Shown here piece by piece: positions 34,266 through 37,200 of a stretch of DNA of 64,000 nt (its first letter is position 1; each line of letters opens with the position of its first letter). Origin of the DNA: Escherichia coli. Lineage in GTDB: Bacteria; Pseudomonadota; Gammaproteobacteria; Enterobacterales; Enterobacteriaceae. A program made the position numbers. Where the stretch lies: NCBI RefSeq assembly GCF_036507355.1, contig NZ_AP027877.1; one strand, 5' to 3'.

Positions 34266-37200
34266 ATCACCGACCAAATTCGAAAAGCCTGCTCAACGAG
34301 CAGGCTTTTTTGCATCTGCAGCCCATGAGGAAGAGAACCTCCGGGGGCAGGGAGGTTCGACTCGACGTAGGCCTGATAAGACGCGTCAGCGTCGCATCAG
34401 GCAACGGCACCGCACTTATTGTCGGATGCGGCGCGACCGCCTTATTCGACCTACACACCACACATTTCCCTGCCAAATTTGCGCCCCATATCTCACTATC
34501 CATTAACGGATTTGTGACAGAAACCATTGTCTTTTTTTATATTTGCTTAAATCTTTTTTTGCGTTACTTATGGCTGGCGCTGGCATTTTCCGCTGTGCGT
34601 TTTAGCGTTCATGGTATTAATCGCTCAGATATCCACCTTTTCCTCAGATTTTTTTCATTAAATGCATAAAACTTAATCACCAAATGTTGCTAAATATTAA
34701 GCTGATTGTTCTGGTCATGTTGGAGTAGCACAAATTTCTCTGCTGCAAATAGCTGTTTGAAGTTTTTTTAATCTTTGTTTGTGGATTCTCACCGTTGGTG
34801 TAAATCCCGGTTGGCTGTATTGACGTTTTCACATTCTGTTGACAGATTGTAGGTCACGAGGGGCATTTTATGGAGGATCCGCACTGTTACACTGATGTTA
34901 ATTAGTACGGCATCCCCACCTCATAACGTTGACCCGACCGGGCAAAAAACAAAAAAGGTCAGGCAGCGACAACCCACTGCAAAGGGTTAAAACAACAAAC
35001 ATCACAATTGGAGCAGAATAATGCGTATTTCCTTGAAAAAGTCAGGGATGCTGAAGCTTGGTCTCAGCCTGGTGGCTATGACCGTCGCAGCAAGTGTTCA
35101 GGCTAAAACTCTGGTTTATTGCTCAGAAGGATCTCCGGAAGGGTTTAACCCGCAGCTGTTTACCTCCGGCACCACCTATGACGCCTCTTCCGTCCCGCTT
35201 TATAACCGTCTGGTTGAATTTAAAATCGGCACCACCGAAGTGATCCCGGGCCTCGCTGAAAAGTGGGAAGTCAGCGAAGACGGTAAAACCTATACCTTCC
35301 ATCTGCGTAAAGGTGTGAAGTGGCACGACAATAAAGAATTCAAACCGACGCGCGAAATGAACGCCGATGACGTGGTGTTCTCGTTTGATCGTCAGAAAAA
35401 CGCGCAAAACCCGTACCATAAAGTATCTGGCGGCAGCTACGAATACTTCGAAGGCATGGGCTTGCCAGAGCTGATCAGCGAAGTGAAAAAGGTGGACGAC
35501 AACACCGTTCAGTTTGTGCTGACTCGCCCGGAAGCGCCGTTCCTCGCTGACCTTGCAATGGACTTCGCCTCTATTCTGTCAAAAGAATATGCTGATGCGA
35601 TGATGAAAGCTGGTACACCGGAAAAACTGGACCTCAACCCAATCGGTACCGGTCCGTTCCAGTTACAGCAGTATCAAAAAGATTCCCGTATTCGCTACAA
35701 AGCGTTTGATGGCTACTGGGGCACCAAACCGCAGATCGATACGCTGGTCTTCTCTATTACCCCTGACGCTTCCGTGCGTTACGCTAAATTGCAGAAAAAT
35801 GAATGCCAGGTGATGCCGTACCCGAACCCGGCAGATATCGCTCGCATGAAGCAGGATAAATCCATCAATCTGATGGAAATGCCGGGGCTTAACGTCGGTT
35901 ATCTCTCGTATAACGTGCAGAAAAAACCACTCGATGACGTGAAAGTTCGCCAGGCTCTGACCTACGCGGTGAACAAAGATGCCATCATTAAAGCGGTTTA
36001 TCAGGGCGCGGGTGTATCAGCGAAAAACCTGATCCCGCCAACTATGTGGGGCTATAACGACGACGTTCAGGACTACACCTACGATCCTGAAAAAGCGAAA
36101 GCCTTGCTGAAAGAAGCGGGTCTGGAAAAAGGTTTCTCCATCGACCTGTGGGCGATGCCGGTACAACGTCCGTATAACCCGAACGCTCGCCGCATGGCGG
36201 AGATGATTCAGGCAGACTGGGCGAAAGTGGGCGTGCAGGCTAAAATCGTCACCTACGAATGGGGTGAGTACCTCAAGCGTGCGAAAGATGGCGAGCATCA
36301 GACGGTAATGATGGGCTGGACTGGCGATAACGGGGATCCGGATAACTTCTTCGCCACTCTGTTCAGCTGCGCCGCCTCTGAACAAGGCTCCAACTACTCA
36401 AAATGGTGCTACAAACCGTTTGAAGATCTGATTCAACCGGCGCGTGCTACCGACGACCATAACAAACGCGTTGAACTGTACAAGCAAGCGCAGGTGGTGA
36501 TGCACGATCAGGCTCCGGCACTGATCATCGCTCACTCCACCGTGTTTGAACCGGTACGCAAAGAAGTTAAAGGCTATGTGGTTGATCCATTAGGCAAACA
36601 TCACTTCGAAAACGTCTCTATCGAATAATTAAAAGCCATACAAGACTGATGGCAAAGGCAAAACTGCCTGATGCGCTCCGCTTATCAGGCCTACGAAAAT
36701 TCTGCAATGTATTGAGTTTGCACGATTTTGTAGGCAGGATAAGGCGTTAACGCCGCATCCGGCATAAACAAAGCGCTCTTTGTCAACAATCTGCATACCC
36801 GGTGGCGCTGTGCCTCTGCGTGCAGCGCCATCCGGCAGCAATACTTCATTCCCTGCCCGACCTGGGCGGGAATTGATTTGTGAGCAATACAGACACGCAG
36901 TTCCAGGCTGCGGGTCACTACAGAGAATCCGGGTTATGTTGCAGTTTATTCTCCGACGTTTGGGACTCGTCATCCCCACGTTTATCGGTATTACCCTTCT
37001 CACATTTGCCTTTGTCCACATGATCCCGGGCGATCCGGTGATGATCATGGCGGGCGAGCGTGGGATCTCCCCAGAGCGTCACGCGCAGCTGCTGGCTGAA
37101 CTCGGCTTAGATAAACCGATGTGGCAGCAGTATCTCCATTACATTTGGGGCGTTATGCATGGCGATCTAGGCATTTCAATGAAAAGCCGCATCCCGGTTT

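Follow-up and report, generated by a model that had tools for sequence, protein, structure and literature searches.

The nearest described relatives of the regulatory site analyzed here are the targets of seed region R1 of the small RNA GcvB, among them dppA, oppA and gltI. Their sites are C/A-rich elements in mRNAs of ABC transporters. The dppA mRNA is a textbook GcvB target. Its interaction through R1 is reported as verified in E. coli and in Salmonella (PMC9299463), and a fusion reaching from -165 to codon 14 of dppA was repressed 3.2-fold by GcvB, but only 1.6-fold without Hfq (PMC1807950). A footprint and an R1 deletion for dppA are cited in PMC4104026. A second described group consists of ACA enhancers, known from yifK and dppA in Salmonella, in which four ACA motifs are packed into 15 nt beside the Shine-Dalgarno sequence (PMC3879156). 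In that organism, deletion of the 15-nt ACA segment lowered dppA expression by 96%, and randomizing the four ACAs yielded variants with an over 100-fold reduction (PMC3879156). The CA-rich site of dppA serves as a model of a translation enhancer that doubles as the target of a small RNA.

Two further groups of sequences offer comparisons for the DNA upstream of this site. REP/BIME elements of E. coli are imperfect palindromes of about 35 nt, intergenic and present in many copies per genome. Regions bound by Lrp and nucleoid proteins, such as those of ilvIH and pap, are long and AT-rich, with spaced conserved blocks and a nutrient-responsive promoter.

The DNA studied here is a 64-kb stretch of an E. 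coli genome, called the window in the following, in which eptB, proK and dppA follow one another, in agreement with the RefSeq annotation of near-identical genomes. The tRNA gene proK, tRNA-Pro(CGG), occupies 34200-34276 on the plus strand (ARAGORN; Rfam tRNA, 60.7 bits; RefSeq annotation of matching genomes), and the dppA coding sequence of 535 aa, an entry of the ORF list annotated as DppA by RefSeq, occupies 35021-36628 on the same strand. Between the end of proK and the dppA start codon at 35021 lies a spacer of 744 bp (34277-35020), close to the roughly 740 bp given in an earlier note on this DNA, and the terminator, REP units, AT-rich stretch and CA-rich element named there were all found where the note had placed them. 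Among the 5426 complete E. coli genomes searched, 5425 carry a match to a 1-kb query around the spacer, under which eptB, tRNA-Pro and dppA are annotated.

This spacer is a composite of separate elements and not a single leader. In this account, in which we have high confidence as a whole, the spacer opens with the intrinsic terminator of proK, followed by a small hairpin repeating the tRNA T-arm and by a REP pair, a dispersed repeat without a counterpart at this place in the other genera compared. About 320 bp of family-conserved AT-rich DNA comes next, which may bind proteins controlling the dppA promoter, then a highly conserved sigma-70 promoter with transcription starting at 34856. The resulting 165-nt leader contains two conserved hairpins, the second displaying an A-rich loop where Hfq may bind, and ends in an unstructured segment that carries four ACA motifs and boosts translation initiation. 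In rich medium, where GcvB is abundant, its G/U-rich R1 pairs with this ACA segment and shuts down dppA translation. Pairing, enhancer, start site and overall anatomy are established here or in published work; the Hfq site and the regulatory role of the AT-rich DNA are inferences. The control region of dppA, its 165-nt leader and the GcvB target site are already known. Recovery of the site from raw sequence illustrates that real regulatory sites can be recognized there, and adds nothing new to the biology.

A scan for DppA gave 80 loci, each from a different Enterobacteriaceae species. At 55 of these loci dppA is preceded by a tRNA-Pro gene, with spacers of 620-1290 bp (median 852), and the long spacer is therefore a family trait rather than a peculiarity of E. 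coli. Against a baseline of 0.55 at four-fold degenerate sites of dppA, identity to non-Escherichia sequences is 0.66 for the terminator, 0.71 for the AT-rich array at 34497-34816, 0.94 on average for the core promoter, 0.64 for the leader hairpins and 0.83 for the CA-rich site with the Shine-Dalgarno sequence; for the REP pair it is 0.21, meaning that other genera have no homologue at this position.

The CA-rich element as enhancer and GcvB target

The CA-rich element (34990-35011, plus strand) unites the GcvB R1 pairing site with an ACA translation enhancer, an assignment that draws on pairing, folding, conservation and the literature. Its string AACAACAAACATCACAA spans 34991-35007, directly upstream of the Shine-Dalgarno sequence and three bases before GGAG at 35010-35013, much as the earlier note had described a CA-rich element abutting that sequence. 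The start codon ATG follows at 35021-35023 on the plus strand, both signals being read directly from the sequence, and GGAGC is invariant in alignments of 15 and of 62 sequences. Positions 34989-35007 are free of any G, and the GcvB site ends on the first two Gs of GGAG. The ACA motifs start at 34992, 34995, 34999 and 35004. Four ACA motifs within 15 nt occur a single time in the window on either strand, at 34992, and 23 of 200 shuffled sequences held any such stretch.

Pairing was evaluated with the gcvB sequence of MG1655. When the mRNA between -165 and +60 was scanned with correction for accessibility, the best GcvB site fell at 34990-35011, opposite GcvB nucleotides 61-83 and inside the interval 34985-35025 that the earlier note had named for the pairing. 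Within it, GcvB 62-74 and 76-82 pair with 34991-35010 in 13 + 7 base pairs around one bulged G. A hybridization energy of -24.9 kcal/mol is set against opening costs of 1.1 for the target and 8.5 for the small RNA, leaving a net -15.3 kcal/mol, and the site is unpaired in both the minimum-energy and the centroid fold of the dppA leader. By hybridization energy alone, the dppA site ranks 42nd among 63,978 tiles of the window (z about -3.9). Raw duplex energy was rejected as a test of GcvB specificity, GC-rich coding segments scoring equally well or better. Because hybridization energy alone is unspecific, the GcvB assignment is based on position, accessibility, conservation and the published experiments.

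Across about 50 non-Escherichia species the CA site shows an identity of 0.83-0.89, compared with 0.55 at synonymous sites, and its CA-rich core is retained in the alignment of 62 sequences. What characterizes R1 targets was found at this locus: a CA-rich, single-stranded site at the ribosome-binding site, extended complementarity to R1 and conservation among enterobacteria. The site in the window is the dppA site itself and differs from it in nothing: it is C/A-rich and unstructured, lies just 5' of the Shine-Dalgarno sequence with an overlap of two bases, is complementary to the G/U-rich R1 and has the same sequence as in MG1655. The Salmonella site carries AUACA in place of the AAACA of E. 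coli and retains the four ACA motifs. With the best pairing at an accessible site and the published work on dppA (PMC9299463, PMC1807950), the earlier suggestion of GcvB-type control of dppA translation is borne out.

The enhancer experiments were performed in Salmonella, so that the function of the E. coli sequence is deduced from near-identity: it carries the same four ACA motifs in 15 nt beside the Shine-Dalgarno sequence. Because GcvB repression on the one side and deletion and randomization of the ACA motifs in Salmonella on the other have been published, the CA-rich element is both a translation enhancer and a GcvB target.

The dppA promoter and its 165-nt leader

Two independent published sources define the 5' end of the dppA mRNA. 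The E. coli dppA::gfp fusion of Urban and Vogel was designed to begin at the mapped start, the 5' end of its insert being given as -165 (PMC1807950). SMRT-Cappable-seq, which captures full-length primary transcripts, lists one abundant primary transcript on the reverse strand of NC_000913.3, 3705889-3707870, covering only b3544 (supplement of PMC6131387). As the dppA ATG of MG1655 is at 3707705, the start at 3707870 corresponds to exactly -165, or 34856 in the window. The SMRT-Cappable-seq tables examined hold no further transcript start at 3707900-3708699. These start-site data refer to standard laboratory growth conditions, so that an additional upstream start might be used under particular conditions, and the position was carried over from MG1655, whose sequence is identical to that of the window from the promoter through the dppA start, including the leader.

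A start at 34856 leaves both the REP units and the AT-rich stretch in DNA upstream of the promoter and outside the mRNA. The earlier note had proposed a long, structured 5' UTR of about 740 nt that would hold both. By E. coli standards the leader is indeed long and structured; its extent, by contrast, is 165 nt, and the longer version, which calls for a start close to the upstream gene, disagrees with both published sources, where starts lie at -165 only. The practical corrections are thus a leader of 165 rather than 740 nt, and REP and AT-rich DNA that do not belong to the transcript.

From this published start and from conservation we infer a sigma-70 core promoter at 34820-34848 on the plus strand. 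It would consist of the -35 element TTGACG (34820-34825), a 17-bp spacer with TG at 34840-34841, and the -10 element CAGATT (34843-34848), which lies seven bases before A34856. The 15-mer TTGACAGATTGTAGG of this promoter is found exactly in 78 of the 80 species loci, and in 71 loci it is located 175-196 nt before the dppA ATG.

The leader itself (34856-35020, plus strand; PMC1807950 and SMRT-Cappable-seq) begins at A34856 and in E. coli forms three hairpins, behind which an unpaired tail carries the CA-rich element. Stem-loop 1 (34858-34922, plus strand) forms the 5' end of the mRNA in the minimum-energy fold and is also visible in the alignment, where, over 62 sequences, 97-99% of the cells in its outer helices hold a pair and all changes are one-sided. 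Stem-loop 2 (34927-34968, plus strand), seen by folding and alignment, exposes a 17-nt A-rich loop, GGGCAAAAAACAAAAAA, at 34940-34956. It folds at -14.2 kcal/mol (z = -2.8), and its helix is paired in 86% of cells, with four pairs showing changes on both sides. The small stem-loop 3 (34971-34988, plus strand), taken from the minimum-energy fold, is dispensable: it is missing in many genera, and where present it keeps a CCC/GGG core. Applied to the whole leader alignment, RNAalifold recovered only part of stem-loop 1, owing to indels, and a supplied structure was therefore used for stem-loops 2 and 3. Over 62 distinct aligned leaders, 89% of cells at the proposed pairs hold a standard pair, and sliding the 3' partners by one to three columns lowers this value to 36-67%. 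For stem-loops 2 and 3 the comparison is tilted towards the supplied structure, since this was derived in part from the E. coli fold.

The A-rich loop has an identity of 0.86 and is made of consecutive A-R-N triplets. According to PMC4104026, Hfq has a roughly 10-fold higher affinity for the first 166 nt of dppA mRNA than for AgvB or GcvB, and the dppA mRNA is predicted to be bound, probably, by the distal face. The sequence of the loop makes it a candidate distal-face site. In addition, rut sites have been predicted in the dppA leader, and dppA and dppB are raised in a rho mutant (PMC7734253). The leader shows neither of two marks of a known cis-regulatory RNA such as a riboswitch, a leader-peptide attenuator or a thermosensor, namely an Rfam family or a conserved upstream ORF. 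Rfam searches of the region at E <= 1 returned only the tRNA, the REP units and sub-threshold matches over tRNA and terminator. An upstream ORF beginning with the ATG at 34870 (MEDPHCYTDVN) was considered and rejected.

A conserved AT-rich array upstream of the promoter

The G+C content is 0.29-0.43 across about 34450-34850, which agrees with the AT-rich stretch reported before for about 34500-34760. Within this region, conservation delimits an array of blocks (34497-34816, no strand assigned) that would act as cis-regulatory DNA. Its mean identity is exceeded by that of its blocks, which reach at least 0.95. The array is conserved in about 50 Enterobacteriaceae species, and about ten discrete blocks with fixed spacing can be distinguished in a comparison of 77 distinct sequences, for instance TTTGTGACA..CCATTG at 34511-34531, GGCATTTTCCGCTGTGCG at 34583-34600 and GTAGCACAAATTTCTCTGCTG at 34725-34745. 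The array is nearly free of indels: more than 10% of the sequences are gapped at only one reference position, 34489, which lies outside it. The strongest period of its conservation profile is about 35 bp, and of 5426 E. coli genomes, 5422 have the array in a single copy.

With the Lrp consensus YAGHAWATTWTDCTR, three distinct Lrp-like sites with two or three mismatches were seen at 34678-34740; the same scan gave 102 matches in the window versus 81 +/- 11 expected, a borderline count. By eye, likeness to OmpR, CRP, FNR, PurR, TyrR and sigma-54 motifs was too weak, and motifs common to the array region and the region upstream of oppA were not significant (best E = 0.09). In its length, AT-richness, spaced conserved blocks and nutrient-responsive promoter the array is like the Lrp- or nucleoid-protein-bound regions of ilvIH and pap, a resemblance without any claim of membership, the Lrp scan being not clearly above chance. 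It is the sole element of the spacer for which no counterpart was found in the accessible literature.

Judged by its pattern of conservation, the array most likely represents protein-binding sites serving the dppA promoter. A more specific proposal, which we put forward tentatively and would sooner doubt than assert, is that this DNA, about 40 to about 360 bp upstream of the start, is an uncharacterized family-wide module in the form of a phased nucleoprotein assembly or a condition-specific second promoter. A phased assembly, if true, would set dppA transcription by nutrient state. The conserved array could be a small lead for work on the transcriptional control of peptide uptake.

Other readings of the spacer give the same DNA a role as RNA or as a gene. 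Much or all of it might be a very long dppA leader, transcribed by read-through from proK or from a promoter-like sequence at 34514-34543 on the plus strand (about 470 nt), so that the AT-rich stretch and, with read-through, the REP units would act as RNA. That sequence, GTGACA-18-TATATT, was found by a scan, fits a promoter at 10 of 12 positions and is a candidate only. It sits in the first conserved block of the array, which is kept across genera; the conserved part is TTTTGTGACA..CCATTG, whereas the -10-like part is lost in Salmonella. The CA site also has a G/U-rich complement at 34776-34787, which in a transcript could mask it. Against this stand the only abundant primary transcript, which starts at -165 with no start listed at 3707900-3708699, and the strength of the proK terminator. 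RNAalifold on the array gave similar scores for both strands and no compensatory changes, its pairs varying by breaking, and the array was accordingly rejected as a structured RNA. A conserved leader cannot include the REP units, for which other genera offer no counterpart. We consider so long a leader improbable.

Even less probable, and in our estimate very improbable, is a reading of 34497-34816, or of the beginning of the leader, as the gene of a small protein missed by annotation or of a small RNA in its own right. The strong, almost indel-free conservation would suit such a product, as would the Shine-Dalgarno-like GAGGGG that precedes the ATG at 34870 and its 11-codon ORF, and in one RefSeq record a 'hypothetical protein' is drawn across this DNA. 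This annotation starts inside an IS621 insertion junction of a single strain, however, and MG1655 has no annotated feature there. The leader ORF was rejected because 5 of the 15 aligned genera have another codon in place of the ATG at 34870. Conservation of the array lacks three-base periodicity (power 1.3 versus a median of 16.6, the three codon phases being equally conserved), on which ground coding DNA was rejected as well, and the array has no Rfam match even at E <= 1. Binding sites for proteins acting on the dppA promoter remain our preferred reading of the array.

Terminator, hairpin and REP pair behind proK

The proximal part of the spacer begins with the intrinsic terminator of proK (34282-34311, plus strand), a perfect inverted repeat whose 13-bp stem encloses a loop of 3 nt and is followed by a T run. 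Its stem (34282-34310) folds at -18.2 kcal/mol (z = -5.0). A simple terminator scan of the window missed it, probably since the extended stem swallows part of the T run, though folding reveals it.

The REP pair (34366-34454, no strand assigned) comprises two units in inverted orientation and was recognized by Rfam, folding and copy number as a dispersed repeat. A match to the naRNA4/REP family (RF02564) covers 34370-34451 and scores 66.9 bits, exceeding the gathering score of 59.5, and the joint fold of the two units reaches -42.2 kcal/mol (z = -4.9); the palindromes noted earlier at 34368-34452 are therewith confirmed. Copies of the 93-bp REP segment number 41,600 over all E. coli genomes, with a median of 7 in each. 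In having two imperfect palindromes of about 35 nt that are inverted, intergenic, multi-copy and matched by naRNA4, the pair belongs with the REP/BIME elements of E. coli. It departs from typical members in that its second unit is somewhat degenerate and in that it directly follows a tRNA terminator instead of lying at the 3' end of an mRNA.

Between terminator and REP pair lies the hairpin GAACCTCC-N8-GGAGGTTC (34335-34358, plus strand), identified as a direct and an inverted repeat, whose 3' arm is a copy of the T-arm sequence of proK. It folds at -17.6 kcal/mol, yet with a z of only -0.9. The hairpin sits at the boundary of a 168-bp tandem duplication seen in MG1655 and absent from the window sequence. 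The extra copy repeats the 3' end of proK together with its terminator and the hairpin behind it, and the MG1655 spacer measures 910 bp; outside this copy the two sequences differ by scattered substitutions, mostly in and around the REP pair.

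Proline tRNA genes and rearrangements upstream of dppA

The tRNA gene that precedes dppA is not the same isoacceptor in all genera. Enterobacter, Lelliottia, Buttiauxella, Cedecea and related genera carry a tRNA-Pro(UGG) upstream of dppA, found at the dppA loci handled here as L026, L029, L030, L035, L036, L044, L046, L048 and L053, as well as L063, L067, L070, L071, L073, L076, L077, L080 and L082. Sequence comparison for six of these loci revealed 13 differences from proK(CGG) among the 77 positions, the anticodon included, and the same position is therefore held by a different proline isoacceptor. 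In Salmonella and Klebsiella, the tRNA preceding dppA matches proK(CGG) exactly.

The 3' end of proK is duplicated in MG1655: comparison of the MG1655 locus (L001:2207-3116) with window 34277-34365 uncovers a 168-bp tandem duplication. The repeated unit comprises proK from the T-loop to its 3' end, the terminator and the next hairpin, together with 60 bp more that are absent from the window. Its boundaries correspond to the short repeat GGAGGTTCGA, present at 34249-61 and 34351-63, and the pattern resembles the scar of an old integration or the product of unequal recombination at the tRNA. The spacer between proK and dppA has also received a mobile element: E. coli strain E2865 (L084:1-790) harbors an IS621 (IS110-family) transposase gene, inserted just upstream of the conserved array of AT-rich blocks. 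A 'hypothetical protein' annotated across the IS621 junction in this strain is probably spurious.

Sequence resemblances within the conserved array

The G/U-rich TGTTTGTGGATT (34776-34787), located inside a conserved block of the upstream array (34497-34816), shows 83% complementarity to the CA-rich enhancer in front of the dppA Shine-Dalgarno (34990-35001), and in that respect resembles the R1 region of GcvB. Since the dppA start maps 69-80 nt downstream of it, this stretch should be outside the dppA mRNA. Just upstream of the dppA -35 element, the conserved block GTGTAAATCCCGGTTGG (34798-34814) has a reverse-orientation match 46-62 nt upstream of the start codon of MG1655 oppA. The two agree at 16 of 18 positions with one gap per sequence; the search space was very small, and at E = 0.09 the match may be due to chance.

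The dppA-dppB spacer and other RNA matches

Downstream of dppA, the spacer to dppB (36629-36935) contains two inverted REP-like units around an AT-rich core (36667-36764), and an Rfam match to ES036/CssrF falls at 36687-36729. A GC-rich hairpin follows 3' of the REP-like units (36800-36836). The abundant transcript that carries dppA alone has a published 3' end at 3705889, corresponding to about 36837 in the window, directly after this hairpin. Further Rfam matches in the window are the cspA thermoregulator (16824-17251, minus strand) and the antitoxin RNAs sok (16386-16541) and rdlD (42525-42590, minus strand).
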